Assembly: GCA_947459165.1 (NCBI GenBank)
Contig: CANHCW010000003.1
Coordinates: 1-40,871 of the forward strand
Reading direction: 5' to 3'
DNA: 40,871 nucleotides
Source of the DNA: Flavobacteriales bacterium
GTDB taxonomy: Bacteria > Bacteroidota > Bacteroidia > NS11-12g > UBA955
The translations under genes were made by a program, and so were the position numbers. Shown piece by piece: positions 4,382 through 35,276 of the stretch (positions are counted from its first letter, which is position 1; each line of letters begins with the position of its first letter). Under the pieces are notes generated by a model, which was not told the origin of the DNA, did not search any database, and was given only the letters and a program-made list of their open reading frames with translations.

Positions 4382-6475
4382 ATGCCCGGTTTTCTCGATA
4401 CCCCCGTTGAGTTCCTCAAAGGCGTAGGACCGCAAAGGGCCGACGCACTGAAAACCGAACTGGGCATTCAAAGCATTGGCGATTTGCTCATGCATTATCC
4501 GGCAAGGCACGAAGACCGTTCCCGCATTTATAAAATTGCCGAATTAGGCAAAGCCGATGCGGGTGTTCAAGTTTCAGGTGTCATTACCCATATCGATTTA
4601 ATTGGCGCGGGGCCCGGAAGGCGCTTTGTGGCCAATATCAAAGACGAAACAGGCAATTTACAACTGGTTTGGTTTCAGGGAATTCCCTGGGTGGCCAAAT
4701 CCGTTAAACCCGGAGACCGCTATCTGGCCTTTGGTCGTTTAAACGACTACAAAGGCCGAATCAGCATGGCTCATCCTGAGTTGGAAAGCAACGCACAGGC
4801 AATCGCACCCAAGGGCTTGGTTCCAGTTTATCCGCTTACCGATGGCATGCGCCGCAAAAAGCTGGAAAACCGCTTCATGGTTCAAATGGTTCAAACCATT
4901 TTCAACGATCCCCGCTTCGATGTTCCCGAAAACCTGCCCCCTGCCCTACTCAAAGAATTTCAGCTTTTAGACAGAAAAACAGCCCTCAGGCAATTGCATT
5001 CGCCCTCCGATTTAAAAAGTCTGGAAAAAGCCCAGCACCGCCTCAAATTCGAGGAATTGTTTTATCTGCAACTCCGTCATCTTCAGTTAAAAACAAACCG
5101 CAACCGCACCATAAAAGGCCTGGTTTTTAGTGAAGTAGGAGATCATTTCAATACATTTTATAAGGAATTCCTGCCCTTTGAACTCACAGATGCACAAAAG
5201 AATGTCCTGCGCGAAATAAGGGCAGACATGCGCACCGGACGACAAATGAACAGGCTGTTGCAAGGCGATGTAGGCAGCGGCAAAACCATTGTGGCGCTGC
5301 TGAGTATGCTGCTGGCGGTTGATAATGGATATCAGGCCTGCGTTATGGCTCCTACCGAAATTCTGGCGGCACAGCATCACCTTAGCCTTAGCGAAATGCT
5401 TGAAGGCATGAACATTAAACCGGTGCTGCTTACAGGCAGCACCACAAAAAAAACAAGGAAAGCCATTCTCGAAAACCTAAAAAGTGGCGAAATTCCATTT
5501 CTCATTGGAACGCACGCCCTCATTGAACAGGATGTGGAGTTCAAGAATCTGGGCCTCGTAGTGATTGATGAACAGCACCGTTTCGGGGTGGCGCAAAGAG
5601 CTCGGTTGGCTTCAAAATCATCCACGCCTCCCCACATTCTGGTGATGACAGCAACACCCATTCCCCGCACACTGGCCATGACCGTTTACGGCGATTTGGA
5701 TGTTAGTGTGATTGATCGTTTGCCCGGAGGCAGAAAACCCATAATTACCGCTGCACGACACCATAGTACCCGCCCTTTGATAATGGATTTTCTGAAAAAG
5801 GAAATTGCAGCAGGACGGCAGGTTTACTATGTATTTCCACTCATCGAAGACAGTGACAAACTGGAGTTGCAAAGTCTTATGTCGGGTTACGACATGGTAA
5901 CAGAATTTCTTCCCACACCTGATTTTAAATACAGCATTGTGCATGGCCGCCTCAAACCCGATGAAAAGGAGAACGAAATGCACAAATTCCGCAATGGCTT
6001 AACCGATATAATGATTGCCACAACCGTGATTGAAGTGGGAGTGAATGTTCCCAATGCCACAGTGATGGTGATTGAAAATGCAGAAAGATTCGGGTTGGCA
6101 CAACTGCATCAGTTGCGCGGCAGGGTTGGGCGCGGCGGCAACCAAAGTTATTGTGTGCTGGTAGCAGGAGGCAAACTCAGCGAAAATGGGAAAAAACGCC
6201 TGGATACGATGGTGAGAACAACAGACGGGTTTGAAATCAGCAAGGTAGATTTGGAACTTCGCGGCCCGGGCGAAATGGATGGAACCCGTCAAAGCGGACT
6301 GCTGGAATTGAAACTGGCCGATATTCGATACGATGAAAACCTGCTTGTGCTGGCCCGCAACAAAGCCGAAGATTTACTGAACGACGATCCCCTGCTTATG
6401 AAACCTGAACATTTCGGGGTCCGGCAGGAATTGGCTAAAACCCCGCACAGAACGGTGTGGAGTAAAATTGCCTGA
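4382..6475 (+). CDS. recG: ATP-dependent DNA helicase RecG
   Basis: LKGVGP, GDVGSGKT, DEQHRFGV, MTATPIPRT, QLRGRVGRG; start placed at ATG 4382 after TAAATTCG (ORF track opens at 4313). Confidence 0.96.
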   Translation: MPGFLDTPVEFLKGVGPQRADALKTELGIQSIGDLLMHYPARHEDRSRIYKIAELGKADAGVQVSGVITHIDLIGAGPGRRFVANIKDETGNLQLVWFQGIPWVAKSVKPGDRYLAFGRLNDYKGRISMAHPELESNAQAIAPKGLVPVYPLTDGMRRKKLENRFMVQMVQTIFNDPRFDVPENLPPALLKEFQLLDRKTALRQLHSPSDLKSLEKAQHRLKFEELFYLQLRHLQLKTNRNRTIKGLVFSEVGDHFNTFYKEFLPFELTDAQKNVLREIRADMRTGRQMNRLLQGDVGSGKTIVALLSMLLAVDNGYQACVMAPTEILAAQHHLSLSEMLEGMNIKPVLLTGSTTKKTRKAILENLKSGEIPFLIGTHALIEQDVEFKNLGLVVIDEQHRFGVAQRARLASKSSTPPHILVMTATPIPRTLAMTVYGDLDVSVIDRLPGGRKPIITAARHHSTRPLIMDFLKKEIAAGRQVYYVFPLIEDSDKLELQSLMSGYDMVTEFLPTPDFKYSIVHGRLKPDEKENEMHKFRNGLTDIMIATTVIEVGVNVPNATVMVIENAERFGLAQLHQLRGRVGRGGNQSYCVLVAGGKLSENGKKRLDTMVRTTDGFEISKVDLELRGPGEMDGTRQSGLLELKLADIRYDENLLVLARNKAEDLLNDDPLLMKPEHFGVRQELAKTPHRTVWSKIA

Positions 6476-26725: not shown

Positions 26726-26857
26726 AAACCACCCTTCGGCAAGCTCAAAAGGACATTACGACTACTTAACAATTAATCCAATAAACAATTACACAGTTGC
26801 ACTAACAAACCACCCCTCGGCAAACTCAGGATGACATTACGACTACTCAACAATTAA
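26726..26857 (+). repeat. Two 51-bp direct repeats with a REP-like core
   Basis: 26726-26776 and 26807-26857 match at 45/51 positions; core CCCYTCGGCAARCTCAGGATGAC. Confidence 0.85.
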
Positions 26858-26932
26858 ACCATTAAACCATTCACTATTAAACCATTCCACCATTAAACTA
26901 TTTCACAATTAAACCATTCACTATTAAACCAT
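26853..26932 (+). repeat. Degenerate 7-8 bp tandem repeat (ATTAAACC-type, 10 units)
   Basis: ATTAAACC ATTAAACC ATTCACT ATTAAACC ATTCCACC ATTAAACT ATTTCACA ATTAAACC ATTCACT ATTAAACC. Confidence 0.9.
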
Positions 26933-31894: not shown

Positions 31895-31949
31895 CCGAGG
31901 GTGCAAAACCCGTGGATACCTATTGCCGCGCATGCCCTTTATTCGCTGT

Positions 31950-33095
31950 ATGAAAATTGAAACCAAGGTACTGCATGCCGGCATAGAACCCGATCCTACA
32001 ACCGGAGCCATCATGACTCCCATTTTTCAAACCAGCACCTATGTGCAGGCAGCGCCCGGTGATCACAAGGGCTATGAATACGCCCGAACACAGAATCCCA
32101 CCCGCGATGTGCTGCAAAAAAATCTGGCTTCACTCGAAAACATGAATTTCGGACTGTGTTTCAGCACCGGCATGGGCGCCGTTGATGCCTGTGTAAAACT
32201 GCTGCAACCCGGCGATGAAGTGGTAAGCACCAACGACTTGTATGGTGGAACTTACCGTTTGTTTACCAAAATTTTTGAACCCTATGGCATCCGTTTTCAT
32301 TTTGTCGACATGACCCGCCCCGAGCAGGTGGAAGCCGCCGTCAATTCCAAAACCAAAATGATCTGGGCCGAAACCCCCACCAATCCCCTGCTGCGCATTA
32401 TTGATATTGAACGCATGTCGCAGATTGCCAAAAAAGCCGGCGCACTGCTGGTTGTTGACAATACTTTCGCCAGCCCCTACCTGCAAAACCCAGCCGATTT
32501 GGGCGCAGACATCGTGATGCACAGCGCTACAAAATATATCAACGGACACAGCGATGTGGTGCTGGGCGCACTGTGTGTAAATGATGAATCCCTGCGCGAC
32601 CGACTGGCTTTCATTCAAAACAGCTGCGGTGCCACGCCCGGTCCTCAGGATTGTTTTCTGGTTTTGCGCGGAATTAAAACCCTGCACATTCGCATGCAAA
32701 GACATTGCGAAAATGGAAAAACCATTGCGCACTGGTTGAAAAACCATCCCAAAGTGGGCGAAGTGCACTGGCCCGGGTTCGAAGATCATCCCGGCTACGC
32801 CATCGCCGCCAAACAAATGCGTGGCTTTGGAGGCATGATTTCTTTCACACTCAAAAACGATTCCATGGATGCCGCCAATGCCTTTCTCAAAAATACACAC
32901 CTGTTCTCCCTGGCCGAAAGCCTGGGTGGAGTGGAAAGTCTCGTCGGACACCCGGCCAGCATGACCCATGCCAGCATTCCCAAAGCGCAAAGAGAAGCCT
33001 CAGGATTGAAAGACTCCCTCATTCGCCTCAGTGTGGGCATTGAACATATCGACGATTTAATTGCCGATTTGGAAAATGCCTTGTCTGCTGTTTAA
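31950..33095 (+). CDS. Cystathionine gamma-synthase/gamma-lyase (Cys/Met PLP enzyme)
   Basis: YARTQNPT, ETPTNP, VDNTF, HSATKY, SLGGVESL, RLSVG. Confidence 0.93.
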   Translation: MKIETKVLHAGIEPDPTTGAIMTPIFQTSTYVQAAPGDHKGYEYARTQNPTRDVLQKNLASLENMNFGLCFSTGMGAVDACVKLLQPGDEVVSTNDLYGGTYRLFTKIFEPYGIRFHFVDMTRPEQVEAAVNSKTKMIWAETPTNPLLRIIDIERMSQIAKKAGALLVVDNTFASPYLQNPADLGADIVMHSATKYINGHSDVVLGALCVNDESLRDRLAFIQNSCGATPGPQDCFLVLRGIKTLHIRMQRHCENGKTIAHWLKNHPKVGEVHWPGFEDHPGYAIAAKQMRGFGGMISFTLKNDSMDAANAFLKNTHLFSLAESLGGVESLVGHPASMTHASIPKAQREASGLKDSLIRLSVGIEHIDDLIADLENALSAV

Positions 33096-33158
33096 TGTTG
33101 TTATACTTTTTCCTACAACACACCAAACAAAACCATTTCTCAAAACCCGGATAAATAT

Positions 33159-33250
33159 AAATTTAGTCAGTCTATTGACTATTTTTATACAAATTTGGTC
33201 AGTCTATTGACTATTTTTACATAAATTTGGTCAGTCTATTGACCATTTTA
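33159..33250. repeat. Three tandem 32-bp units each with a palindrome RGTCA-GTCTAT-TGACY (putative operators)
   Basis: Units start at 33159, 33191, 33223 (AAATTTRGTCAGTCTATTGACYATTTT); -7 element TACCTTCG follows at 33263-33270. Confidence 0.92.
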
Positions 33251-33274
33251 ATGTTTTTTTCATACCTTCGTGGT

Positions 33275-34405
33275 GTGTTTCATCGCAAAATGCTCGACAT
33301 ACTGGAAGACAATCTGAACAGGCAAAAGGTAACCCTATTGCTCGGGGCTCGCCGTGTAGGCAAAACCGAACTGCTTCAGACCTTATTCAGAAAAAAGAAA
33401 AAAACGGGCTTGTGGCTCAACGGAGAAGACCAGGATACACTGACCTTGCTGGACAACCGCAGTCTGGCCAATTACAAAAAATTGCTTGAAGGGTACAACC
33501 TGCTCATTATTGATGAAGCGCAATTCATACCTGACATTGCCCTCAAGGCCAAGCTGATGATTGACAACATTCAGCCTCTGCATATCATTCTAACCGGCTC
33601 CTCGGCCTTCGATATCGAAAAAATGGGAAATCCGCTGGTAGGTCGAAGCATCACTCACCACATGTTTCCACTGGCACAAATGGAATGGAAACAGAAGGAA
33701 AATGCCATTGAAACCCGTCAGCACTTGGAAGATAGGCTCATTCTGGGCAGTTACCCTGAAATCAGTCAGTTAACAACCACCACTCAAAAAGTTGAATACC
33801 TGCGGGAATTGGTACACACCTATCTGCTGAAGGATATTCTCATGTTTGAGCAAATTAACAATTCACAAAAACTGCGCGACCTACTGGTGCTGCTGGCATA
33901 TCAGGTGGGCAGCGAAGTATCCATGCACGAACTGGGGCGGCAGCTGGGGCTGAGTAAAAACACGGTTGAACGCTATCTTGATTTGCTGAGTAAGGTTTTT
34001 GTTATTTACAGCCGCACCGGTTACAGCGGCAATCTTCGCAAGGAAGTGGCAAAAGGCCGTAAATGGTATTTTGTTGATAACGGCATCCGTAACGCAATCA
34101 TCAACAATTTCAAACCACTGGCATTGAGAACTGATACGGGGGCGCTTTGGGAGCAATACATGCTTTCGGAAAGAATTAAATACCTCAGTTATACAAACCG
34201 ATATCTGGTAGATAGTTTTTTCTGGCGAACCTACGATCAGCAGGAAATTGACCTCATTGAAATGGAAAATACCCGGCTTTCGGCCTTCGAATTCAAATGG
34301 AAAGAAGACAAGGCAAAAACTCCCGTTGCTTTTGCCAAAGCCTACCCCGATGCACCATTCCAACTAATCAATCAATTCAACTACCTCGAATGGATTGGGG
34401 CTTAA
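33275..34405 (+). CDS. AAA_14 ATPase with HTH and DUF4143 (PD-(D/E)xK-like) C-terminus
   Basis: Walker A GARRVGKT, Walker B IIDEAQ, TGSS, LVGR, GSYPE, HTH ELGRQLGLSKNTVERYL, DNG, EIDLIE...FEFKW; GTG 33275 or ATG 33290 start. Confidence 0.92.
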   Translation: MFHRKMLDILEDNLNRQKVTLLLGARRVGKTELLQTLFRKKKKTGLWLNGEDQDTLTLLDNRSLANYKKLLEGYNLLIIDEAQFIPDIALKAKLMIDNIQPLHIILTGSSAFDIEKMGNPLVGRSITHHMFPLAQMEWKQKENAIETRQHLEDRLILGSYPEISQLTTTTQKVEYLRELVHTYLLKDILMFEQINNSQKLRDLLVLLAYQVGSEVSMHELGRQLGLSKNTVERYLDLLSKVFVIYSRTGYSGNLRKEVAKGRKWYFVDNGIRNAIINNFKPLALRTDTGALWEQYMLSERIKYLSYTNRYLVDSFFWRTYDQQEIDLIEMENTRLSAFEFKWKEDKAKTPVAFAKAYPDAPFQLINQFNYLEWIGA

Positions 34406-34468
34406 ATTCAACACAATTATCCATGTAATTTCTAAATCTAACTTGGAAATTACATGGATAAATTCAAC
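34403..34468. repeat. 16-bp perfect inverted repeat flanked by 10-bp direct repeats
   Basis: TTATCCATGTAATTTC (34417-32) / GAAATTACATGGATAA (34446-61); TAAATTCAAC at 34403-12 and 34459-68. Confidence 0.85.
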
Positions 34469-34490: not shown

Positions 34491-35276
34491 ATGAACCACA
34501 CCGAACTGCACAGCCTGCTGGAAGAAAAGGTTCAGCAATTCAACAACACGGCATTCATAGAACCCGACCCCATTTCAGTTCCACACCGTTTCACCCAAAA
34601 ACAGGATATTGAAATTGCCGGACTCTTTGCGGCTTTGCTGGCCTGGGGAAACCGCACCACCATCATCAACAGCTGCAACAGGCTCATGAAACTGATGGAT
34701 GAAGCGCCTTACGATTTCATTAAAAACCACAGCGAAAATGAGAGACAACGCTTTGAAAAATGGGTGCACAGAACCTTTCAATTCCCAGACTTGCTCTACT
34801 TTCTTGAGTTTTTGCAATTTCATTACACCCGCCACCCTTCTTTGGAGACAGCCTTTTCCGCCGGACTGAGACCCTCAGACCGCAGCATTGAAAAAGCCCT
34901 CATTCATTTTCACAGCTACTTTTTTTCTCTGCCACATTTGCAAAGAACCGAGAAGCACCTGCAAAGCCCGGCCAGAAAAAGCGCCTGCAAACGACTCAAT
35001 TTGTACCTGCGCTGGATGGTTCGCCGCGATGAGCAGGGTGTTGACTTTGGACTCTGGCAAAACATACACCCACGGCAGTTAATTTGTCCGCTGGATGTGC
35101 ATGTACACAGAACAGCAGTGAAACTAAAACTCATTTCAAGGCCCCAGCCCGACTGGCTGTGCGCCACCCTGCTCACTAAAAAACTTCGTTCTTTTGATTC
35201 CGAAGACCCTGTGAAATACGATTATGCTTTATTCGGTTTGGGCTTGGAACAAAGTGGAAAAACGGTGAGCAAATGA
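34491..35276 (+). CDS. TIGR02757 / DUF2400 family protein
   Basis: DPISVPH, LAWGNR, SACKRLNLYLRWMVR, PLDVHV, DPVKYDYALFG. Confidence 0.9.
   Translation: MNHTELHSLLEEKVQQFNNTAFIEPDPISVPHRFTQKQDIEIAGLFAALLAWGNRTTIINSCNRLMKLMDEAPYDFIKNHSENERQRFEKWVHRTFQFPDLLYFLEFLQFHYTRHPSLETAFSAGLRPSDRSIEKALIHFHSYFFSLPHLQRTEKHLQSPARKSACKRLNLYLRWMVRRDEQGVDFGLWQNIHPRQLICPLDVHVHRTAVKLKLISRPQPDWLCATLLTKKLRSFDSEDPVKYDYALFGLGLEQSGKTVSK

Follow-up and report, generated by a model that had tools for sequence, protein, structure and literature searches.

A 32-bp Palindromic Array as the Candidate Private Operator of an AAA_14-DUF4143 ATPase-Nuclease Gene, and Its Co-variation With the Recognition Helix of the Encoded Protein

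The window analyzed here was the whole of contig C3 (CANHCW010000003.1; 40,871 nt) of a 2.28-Mb, 242-contig, 85%-complete Flavobacteriales assembly. At positions 33155-33249 the window carries a tandem array of three 32-bp palindromic units, followed by a gene (33275-34405) for a predicted ATPase-nuclease. The array is probably the private operator lattice of this gene, at which the gene product would repress its own transcription through its own winged helix-turn-helix (HTH) domain. Sequence comparison carries this reading: the array motif was unique in the genome, each paralogue of the gene had a different element of its own, the 32-bp period recurred across the family, and the half-site changed with the recognition helix of the protein.

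Results

Array Structure and Uniqueness in the Genome

The array and its palindromes were located as follows:
33155..33249, no strand: tandem array of three 32-bp units, each made of two inverted 16-bp half-sites (Tandem Repeats Finder and half-site listing)
33165..33180, no strand: palindrome 1, AGTCA-GTCTAT-TGACT
33197..33212, no strand: palindrome 2, GGTCA-GTCTAT-TGACT
33229..33244, no strand: palindrome 3, GGTCA-GTCTAT-TGACC, the promoter-proximal unit, centred 26 bp before the -7 box

A sequence-only reading of the window had described three near-identical RGTCA-N6-TGACY units at a 32-bp period, and these were recovered both by Tandem Repeats Finder (TRF) and by exact matching. For TRF this was the top-scoring tandem array of the window (period 32, 3.0 copies, 92% matches, score 162). 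The 14-mer GTCAGTCTATTGAC was exact at positions 33166, 33198, and 33230, and three matches to it at up to two mismatches were reached in 0 of 100 dinucleotide shuffles. All three palindromes had AT-rich flanks.

Across the assembly (2,284,343 bases) the only exact copies of GTCAGTCTATTGAC were the three of the window array; further matches at two mismatches numbered 10, vs. nine for the reversed control pattern. The shorter pattern GTCA-N6-TGAC occurred 18 times genome-wide, three of them in the window array, and three of the other occurrences, chosen by eye for AT-rich flanks, lay within long open reading frames (ORFs). The motif was not a genome-wide site, in line with the sequence-only reading, and its uniqueness therefore ruled out a global transcription-factor site. 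An array of clustered regularly interspaced short palindromic repeats was also ruled out, the units being contiguous without spacers and without an Rfam match; the Rfam search returned only a chance bicoid_3 match (E 0.24). Both independent metagenome DNA assemblies covering the locus contained the full three units, one of them with a 1-nt deletion at 33254. The stretch was present in freshwater, lake, and river metagenome runs of 12 studies, five of these runs being possibly the source of the DNA.

The half-site was defined from 158 half-sites at 44 loci. Read toward the dyad, its consensus was R-T-W-A-A-T-T-y-m-G-T-C-A-r-T-n (RTWAATTymGTCArTn), with GTCA..TGAC alone imposed and the other positions free. 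An A was found at -13 in 157 and at -12 in 145 of the 158 half-sites, a T at -15 in 131 and at -2 in 134, and the spacer was N6 in 79 of 80 palindromes. The six half-sites of the window matched this consensus (e.g., ATAAATTTGGTCAGTC and ATTAAAATGGTCAATA). Side-by-side units in the wider sample were doubly palindromic, the AATTnnGTCA-N6-TGACnnAATT dyad alternating with an AT-rich dyad (e.g., GAATTAACGTTAATTC). By its letters, then, the lattice reads as a string of 16-bp half-sites whose orientation alternates. The two conserved blocks of the half-site, six bases apart, would suit a protein that sets its recognition helix into the major groove and its wing into the adjacent AT-rich minor groove. 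GTCA anchoring was used in place of an automatic site finder with 4-mer arms, which returned sites, in registers that shifted, for 44 of 101 entries, and a dyad scan with 14 pairs was too strict, missing the window's own array.

Elements Upstream of Paralogous Genes

The 2.28-Mb assembly contained nine AAA_14+DUF4143 (hereafter DUF4143) genes, and every one of them had its own, different repeat or palindrome upstream. Six of the nine were directly preceded by a TRF array (score at least 60), with differing units and periods of 22-33 bp:
C3 (window gene): period 32 bp, 3 copies
C25 paralogue: period 32 bp, about 7-8 copies
C152 paralogue: period 32 bp, 2.5 copies
C95 paralogue: period 33 bp, 2.9 copies
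C1 paralogue: period 23 bp, 3 copies
C100 paralogue: period 22 bp, 3.5 copies

The remaining three paralogues were preceded by palindromes: TGCACAT-N4-ATGTGCA with extra half-sites (C47), TTGTAAT-N7-ATTACAA (C83), and a 41-nt palindrome (C29, where only 99 nt of upstream DNA remained before the contig end). In total, 7 of the 32 merged arrays in the whole genome (period 15-60) directly preceded these ATPase genes. A related ATPase_2 (archaeal ATPase) gene at C144:4660-5808 also had an array upstream (C144:4572-4643; period 30, two copies), and on this evidence the upstream-array trait may extend beyond DUF4143 to the ATPase_2 family.

Conservation and Loss Within the Genus

An orthologue at 76-78% identity was found in 7 of 11 other genomes of the genus; in the other 4 of the 11 genomes searched, the gene was not found. 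Its position after the Cys/Met-metabolism gene was the same in all five loci with enough upstream DNA, a placement confirmed by search in four. GTCA-N6-TGAC units at 32 bp preceded the gene in 5/5 orthologue loci with at least 300 nt upstream (three units in three loci, two units in two), while two more loci were cut off by contig ends. A 73%-identical copy in a genome of another family, in another genomic context, had four units of CAGTCAG-N4-CTGACTG, and a 48%-identical homologue had two GTCA units; unit number thus varied by species among two, three, and four. Copy number might tune expression, as the sequence-only reading suggested.

In two genomes of the genus that lack the gene, the ORF had been lost by internal deletion at the conserved locus. 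In G005 (L047, between the Cys/Met gene and a DUF2400 gene) the deletion spared two array units, still intact, and the last ~30 nt of the ORF; at this locus the array has outlived its gene. In G008 (L048, the same locus) a decayed remnant was found. In G011 just 16 bp separated the genes flanking the locus. Gene and array are therefore a module that is ancestral in the genus, dispensable, and moved between genomes as a unit.

The Element in the Wider Family

A one-genome-per-species scan with alignment A2 gave 80 loci at 44-67% identity, from which one (L123) was dropped as truncated. The sampled loci came mostly from Bacteroidota; Ignavibacteria, candidate phyla radiation bacteria, Omnitrophota, Planctomycetia, Proteobacteria, and Verrucomicrobia were also represented. 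A TRF array lay within 300 nt upstream at 27 of 79 loci, with a period of 32 in 24 of them and of 31, 33, and 21 in one each. An exact 7-mer on either strand occurred at least three times in 160 nt in 38 of 78 upstream regions, compared with 0/79 in-gene regions, 5/77 downstream regions, and 0/78 shuffles. Best-lag self-matches of at least 32/40 were confined to upstream DNA (23/74 upstream, 0/74 in-gene, 0/72 downstream), and the lag was 32 in 21 of the 23. With the mark lowered to at least 26/40, and with 94 de-duplicated upstream regions of subfamily members (orthologues and paralogues included), 69 upstream regions were periodic, compared with 0/74 in-gene and 1/72 downstream. The lags of these 69 regions were 32 (60 regions), 33 (five), 14 (two), 31 (one), and 34 (one).

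Elsewhere in the family the element took other forms. Of 41 Bacteroidota genomes sampled, 23 had DUF4143, and a single genome had as many as 16 copies. For other subfamilies 30 loci were fetched, of which seven were dropped (no ORF, no start, or too little upstream DNA). An inverted repeat with at least nine arm pairs, no more than 120 nt from the start, was present at 17 of the remaining 23 loci (1/23 in-gene), and tandem periodicity at five (0/23 in-gene). Eight distant plasmid homologues (22-44% identity) were also examined. Long palindromes abutted the start codon in those from Moraxella, Treponema, and Azotobacter; the Salipiger homologue had a 22-bp array of 3.6 copies, the Trichlorobacter homologue a single GTCA-N6-TGAC, and the Rhizobium and Acinetobacter homologues short repeated motifs, and no clear upstream element was seen in the Thermus homologue. 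Because other subfamilies and plasmid homologues also have palindromes or repeats upstream, a cognate element before the gene appears to be a trait of the whole family, of which the 32-bp lattice is the form found in the window's subfamily.

The family was found in 464 of 72,556 plasmid records and, rarely, in phage records (16 of 50,697). Six loci (L094-L098 and L102), from genomes labelled Bacteroides, Phocaeicola, and Prevotella, shared identical coordinates of a 54.2%-identity match. Their upstream DNA was also near-identical: over 170 nt five of them agreed fully, and L095 differed by one base. Equal 54.2% matches (H11 and H12) lay on small plasmids of Bacteroides finegoldii (12.4 kb) and Phocaeicola massiliensis (33 kb). 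Near-identical loci across labelled genera, together with the plasmid copies, suggest recent horizontal spread among gut Bacteroidales. Two single loci were also recorded: the homologue at L079:801-1931 had an in-frame stop at codon 184 and is likely a pseudogene, with TTCA..TGAA-type sites still upstream, and L038 (G014:C276) held two tandem paralogues, each with a different upstream element, one of which was a 33-bp array of 2.2 copies.

Co-variation of the Recognition Helix and the Half-Site

The recognition helix of the window protein starts with S227-K-N-T (SKNT). The co-variation set comprised 101 entries minus three whose upstream DNA was shorter than 150 nt. Every one of the 44 genes for SKNT proteins had two or more AT-flanked GTCA half-sites in the 200 nt upstream, vs. 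7 of the 54 genes for non-SKNT proteins. On a quick LG+G4 tree built with the HTH columns excluded, the SKNT state changed 17 times and gave eight independent pairs on starred branches. Across these eight pairs the GTCA trait changed in the same direction in 6.7, in the opposite direction in 0, and remained unchanged in 1.3 (sign test, median p 0.016, range 0.008-0.125).

Other recognition helices were paired with other sites:
SKTT: core AAAATCGCCA
SKGT: core GGCC
DNQT: site TTGCGAATATATTCGCAA
DKGT: site ATCGCCAA
DKAT (C25 paralogue): site TTTCGGAG..CCCCGAAA
DQKT (two genomes): CCGGAAT..ATTCCGG
GNTTTLaHY: TACTCA/TGAGTA, in 4/4 genes of four genomes

The sequence-only reading had proposed that the protein binds its own array, and had named as a test whether homologues and paralogues have gene-specific upstream arrays co-varying with the HTH. 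Such arrays were looked for and found, among the paralogues as well as in the SKNT comparison, and this comparative test supports binding of the array by the protein.

Gene Start, Promoter Register, and Neighboring Genes

The gene and its predicted promoter elements were placed as follows:
33239..33241, + strand: TTG within the last half-site (ATTGAC), at the putative -33 element position, assigned from spacing
33263..33270, + strand: -7 box-like TACCTTCG, an imperfect TAnnTTTG, ending 4 nt before the start codon
33275..34405, + strand: coding sequence of 376 aa for an AAA_14 ATPase with a winged HTH and a DUF4143 PD-(D/E)xK tail (Pfam, PADLOC PDC-S01, AlphaFold2 model)

The start was assigned to GTG 33275 (MFHRKMLDIL), replacing the mechanical ORF start at TTG 33227, because the N-terminus MF(H/D/K)RK is conserved (orthologues read MFDRK from a GTG at the same position) and the 73%-identical homologue has an ATG there.

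Promoters of Bacteroidota are described by a -33/-7 consensus, with its spacing and its distance from the box to the transcription start. Placed on this consensus, the third unit would cover the -33 position of the predicted promoter, as the first reading had anticipated: the TTG of the last half-site preceded the -7 box by 21 nt in the window and by 20 nt in orthologues, which carried a perfect TAACTTTG where the window has TACCTTCG. A perfect TAnnTTTG no more than 45 nt from the start was found in 66 of 100 family entries; in 13 of these the box ended 4 nt from the start, and in 41 the gap was 15-27 nt. The 4-nt spacing was shared by the window gene, its orthologues, the C25 and C152 paralogues, and others. 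Because its -7 box ends so close to the start, the mRNA of the window gene should be leaderless or nearly so, given the usual box-to-start distance. For part of the family in Bacteroidota box position likewise implied leaderless mRNAs, and for the rest leaders of 15-27 nt. A scan for sigma-70 promoters returned no more sites than in shuffles, its model not representing Bacteroidota promoters.

The proximal palindrome stood in a fixed register to the -7 box. Among the 33 SKNT loci that have a -7-type box, the distance from its centre to the box was 15-18 bp (10 loci), 24-27 bp (16), 45 bp (three), or 58-59 bp (four); in the window it was 26 bp. The 15-18 and 24-27 bp classes are about one helical turn apart, and adding one unit to the 24-27 bp class gives the 58-59 bp class.

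The upstream neighbor is a pyridoxal phosphate enzyme of Cys/Met metabolism (31923-33095), on the same strand and ending 60 bp before the array, and the downstream neighbor is a DUF2400 gene (34491-35276). Farther neighbors included DUF58/VWA, amidohydrolase, YkuD, formyltransferase, and DUF4837 genes. The surroundings were thus housekeeping genes and no defence island. No flanking-ORF family recurred across loci, the largest cluster covering 3 of 73, which bears out the earlier remark that no separate regulator is encoded nearby. With no neighboring gene conserved, no second protein is available as the binder. Metatranscriptome contigs from two sets covered only 32922-33113 and 33015-33165, where the upstream gene ends, and reached no farther than the first unit. 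The ATPase gene had no such contig on it, and contigs can reveal neither transcript ends nor silence.

One further palindromic element lay downstream of the gene:
34417..34464, no strand: orphan 47-nt palindromic element, with one other genomic copy by blastn (C29:16417-16463, 91.5% identical)

This element sits between the ATPase stop and the DUF2400 start and was absent from orthologous loci, where the two genes abut. Its other copy, immediately ahead of the C29 paralogue's -7 box, is the presumptive operator of that gene and shares its style with the operators of L141, L143, and L163. The orphan copy could place DUF2400 under the control of the C29 paralogue, or could be a relic.

Domains and Predicted Fold of the Protein

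The motifs of the protein were mapped to the window as follows:
33344..33367, + strand: Walker A GARRVGKT (G24-T31); G24, G29, and K30 invariant in 76 sequences
33953..33994, + strand: winged-HTH recognition helix, residues 227-240, SKNTVERYLDLLSK (AlphaFold2 helix 228-240, then a beta-hairpin; changes together with the half-site core)
34151..34297, + strand: PD-(D/E)xK motif E293, E324, D326, E339, K341 (conservation in 76 sequences)

The architecture seen in the first reading (an AAA_14 ATPase, an internal HTH, and a PD-(D/E)xK-like tail) held up in domain searches, the structure model, and residue conservation. Pfam placed AAA_14 (PF13173) at residues 17-137 (82.4 bits; gathering cut-off 27) and DUF4143 (PF13635) at residues 186-342 (128.8 bits; cut-off 28.1), with HTH_11 at residues 209-249 (20.5 against 25) and HTH_24 both under their cut-offs. 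The PADLOC PDC-S01 profile PDLC04789 covered residues 1-374 of 376 (E 3.4e-147). The protein has both P-loop NTPase motifs, Walker A GxxxxGK[ST] and Walker B hhhhDE, the latter as IIDE (77-81) with D80 and E81 invariant in the 76 sequences. Among the 76 aligned members R124, T230, and Y234 were also invariant or nearly so, T230 and Y234 lying in the recognition helix. In the tail, E324 and D326 were invariant and E293, E339, and K341 at least 90% conserved, which are the catalytic residues of the PD-(D/E)xK superfamily motif. In the available part of PMC3424549, DUF4143 is listed in this superfamily with function 'Unknown'. From the conserved motif and that listing, the C-terminal domain is a predicted nuclease.

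The AlphaFold2 model (predicted local distance difference test 93.7, predicted template modelling score 0.91) comprised an alpha/beta ATPase, a helical part, a three-helix winged HTH (helices 197-209, 217-224, and 228-240; strands 244-250 and 262-266), and a mixed alpha/beta C-terminal domain. Structure-search matches spanned model residues 1-290 and barely covered the C-terminal domain. Nearest over residues 1-277 were PABY2304 (2qen; Z 16.9) and SSO1545 (2fna; Z 16.3), with 255-256 aligned residues at 19% identity and a Foldseek E of 9e-9. Proteins of the signal transduction ATPase with numerous domains (STAND) type also matched over a whole range of Z 10.6-14.2: NLRs and Avs at 11-14, Avs5 at 11.8-12.6, and Avs4 at 10.6. 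The DNA filaments of MuB and TnsC matched at Z ~12 and DNA-bound Orc1/Cdc6 at Z 12.3, the last with a root-mean-square deviation of 9.1; MalT (8bob) and DnaA were also among the matches. On this model, the predicted fold is AAA+/STAND-like plus a winged helix. A sequence search of the PDB with the window protein gave 0 matches, and a Pfam scan (E up to 0.01) did not find Cdc6/ORC, Sigma54_activat, Rep, ParR, NB-ARC, or NACHT. Neither a sensor or trigger domain nor a repeat domain was found in the 376 residues by the Pfam scan and the model. A two-copy dimer prediction with alignment A3 scored 0.00, with the mark at 0.42, and speaks neither for nor against a dimer.

Other Repeats in the Window and Assembly

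The window has a second tandem array at 26849-26932 (periods 8 and 15, unit ATTAAACCATTCACT, 4.7 copies). Similar short, AT-rich-looking repeats were found at C16:24262-24352, C65:1860-2069, and C69:6897-6997. Arrays of 27-bp units with the palindrome GACGGATAATCATCCGTC occurred at C134:4520-4676 and 5497-5623 (5.9 and 4.7 copies), with a 48-bp variant at a contig end (C160:1-208). One GACGGATAATCATCCGTC-type array precedes a small AHSA1-domain gene, and these arrays are unrelated to the ATPase family.

Discussion

Relation to Known Systems

The window protein belongs to a family that is known and uncharacterised. It is the PADLOC family PDC-S01 (COG1373 'ATP-binding protein'), which in the available text of PMC12988326 is the fourth most common defence candidate in prokaryotes (~39,000 detected copies), a fusion of an ATPase and a PD-(D/E)xK domain, and awaits validation. 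According to the accessible part of PMC13356809, no other single defence locus was as frequent in rumen genomes. One representative was assayed in E. coli B against T7, T5, and T4 and was outside the four protective candidates, as far as the accessible text of bioRxiv 10.1101/2024.09.26.614923 reports. The parts of the PDC-S01 literature available mention no cognate upstream array, and the window gene lies among housekeeping genes, outside a defence island. More broadly, no description of upstream arrays or of specific DNA binding was found in the available portions of the literature on DUF4143, PF13635, COG1373, PDC-S01, and SSO1545/PABY2304. As far as these searches show, the cognate lattice and the helix/half-site code are undescribed.

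The mycobacterial protein IniR offers a precedent for an ATPase with an SSO1545-like AAA+ domain acting at a promoter. In the available text of PMC5760070, IniR is a promoter-binding ATPase regulator that binds the iniBAC promoter by chromatin immunoprecipitation sequencing and induces iniBAC, and its AAA+ domain is predicted by Phyre2 to resemble SSO1545. The 'Walker-type' archaeal ATPases SSO1545 and PABY2304 are themselves the best structural matches of the window protein over the ATPase, helical part, and winged helix. These two belong to a different Pfam family, ATPase_2. Like MalT, IniR, and NtrC-type proteins, the window protein would be a nucleotide-switched, oligomerising ATPase with a DNA-binding domain on an array of promoter sites. 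NtrC dimers, for instance, sit on tandem dyads about three turns apart. Those proteins regulate other genes by ligand and have sensor domains, whereas the window protein lacks a sensor, has a predicted nuclease, and seems directed at its own promoter only.

Orc1/Cdc6 proteins combine an AAA+ ATPase with a winged helix that acts on repeated sites, often beside their own gene. Their DNA-bound fold is a match; however, they have no nuclease domain, the window family has nine copies per genome, and alternating half-sites at a fixed 32 bp are unlike the layout of origin recognition box (ORB) elements. Iteron/Rep and ParR-parC systems have phased binding sites before the gene of the binder, which serve as operator and as assembly platform, but Rep and ParR are small DNA binders without an ATPase or nuclease, and their direct repeats have periods of 11 or 22 bp. 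Avs/AVAST proteins share a STAND-like NTPase core joined to a nuclease effector; they are large proteins whose sensor repeats, at the C-terminus, bind phage proteins, whereas the only evident ligand reader of the window protein is its winged HTH. In general type, the system of the window would be a DNA-binding protein that regulates itself through an array of operators, the protein at this locus being a predicted ATPase-nuclease.

A Probable Private Operator Lattice

Under the reading we favor, each 32-bp unit would present two facing 16-bp half-sites, each taking one protomer, with the recognition helix (SKNTVERY) on GTCA and the wing probably on the conserved AATT. One dimer would occupy each palindrome, and dimers 32 bp (three helical turns) apart would stand on the same DNA face with their AAA+ domains able to touch; three units would hold six protomers. 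The promoter-proximal unit would lie over the -33 element of a promoter whose leaderless or near-leaderless mRNA would start from GTG 33275. Autorepression is proposed because of this overlap: occupancy would switch off the gene's own transcription, and a potentially harmful nuclease would be kept low and self-limited. Different helix/half-site pairs would insulate paralogues within one cell. Own-lattice binding would account for the uniqueness of the motif, the paralogue-specific motifs, the conserved period and register, the co-variation with the helix, and the lack of partner genes. What we infer beyond these observations is physical binding, the number of protomers (dimer or hexamer), any role of ATP, a repressing and not an activating effect, and the target of the nuclease.

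Several results weigh against this reading. An activator could make equal use of a site centred near -38. The window has an imperfect -7 box, and its transcription start is a predicted one. Of the 94 upstream regions, 25 had no periodic signal at the threshold. The seven non-SKNT proteins with GTCA sites had near variants such as NKIT, NKGT, SKIT, AKNT, SKNS, SSKT, and SRNTI, and the starred branches of the quick LG+G4 tree deserve less trust. A corresponding test of SRNT against TTCA was not significant (three pairs, median p 1), although it was confounded because AATTCA itself contains TTCA. Lastly, the palindromic units would let an RNA copy of the array fold too: its predicted fold was stronger than in shuffles (z -7.25), and unit 3 gave a weak score as a terminator-like site.

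The best-placed alternative has the protein bind the lattice mainly as an assembly or activation platform, on which ATP-dependent oligomers would activate the promoter in a class-II-like manner, or would store and arm the nuclease in a nucleoprotein complex until a trigger releases it. The fold, resembling STAND/AAA+ oligomers and filaments (NLRs, Avs, MuB, and TnsC), and the case of IniR, in which such an ATPase activates, both speak for it, but a trigger or sensor domain is missing from the 376 residues. The 7-8 units of the C25 array go beyond what repression needs; in other subfamilies, against this, the element is mostly a single palindrome abutting the start codon, which looks like simple occlusion. 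The promoter registers one helical turn apart would suit face-specific contact with RNA polymerase, while the proximal half-site overlaps -33, the classic place of a repressor. On balance we regard a platform of this kind as unlikely.

A second alternative leaves the repeats unread by the window protein, as an RNA or DNA structure (a terminator or insulator of the Cys/Met gene) or as the site of another host factor. The strength of the RNA fold, the weak terminator pattern of unit 3, and an upstream gene ending on the same strand 60 bp before the array agree with a structural role. Hairpins, however, need neither the AATT conservation nor an exact 32-bp period, and the motif changed with the recognition helix of the ATPase and not with the upstream gene, accompanied the gene into other genomic contexts, and occurred nowhere else in the genome. 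With no other conserved gene nearby as well, we consider this alternative highly improbable.

Comparably improbable is an array that serves as an iteron-like origin, or as a recombination or mobility site, of a selfish gene-plus-site cassette with an initiator-, transposition-, or homing-like protein. The resemblance to Orc1/Cdc6, DnaA, MuB, and TnsC, and a layout like that of ORB elements by archaeal orc1/cdc6 or of iterons by rep genes, would suit such a cassette, yet nine copies per 2.3-Mb chromosome make so many origins unlikely. The gene is patchy (missing from 4 of 11 same-genus genomes searched and deleted at a conserved locus in two), frequent on plasmids (464 records), and intact in its nuclease motif; against mobility, synteny was stable in the genus and the losses were plain deletions that left the array. 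Homing logic is contradicted by a site that lies within the occupied allele. No inverted second array stood downstream in the self-match scans (0/72 at the stricter mark and 1/72 at the looser one), and transposon ends were therefore ruled out.

Implications for the Family

Returning to the operator lattice, the conserved cis element and a readable protein-DNA code would be the first concrete, testable molecular property of the family: sequence-specific binding at its own promoter. Heterologous defence assays may depend on the native upstream array being cloned. Private helix/half-site pairs would explain how up to 16 paralogues coexist in one genome without cross-talk, and the family would offer a natural set of orthogonal repressor-operator pairs. 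A bolder and more doubtful possibility is that PDC-S01 proteins are a vast library of self-addressed ATPase-nucleases, whose working state would be an ATP-driven, STAND-like oligomer or filament on the lattice. The lattice would then be more than an operator, a DNA-templated switch that sets dose and arms or parks the nuclease. If such a self-addressed switch is true, the family would be no conventional phage-sensing defence gene but a new class of DNA-sequence-gated effector, and would hold thousands of orthogonal protein-operator pairs.

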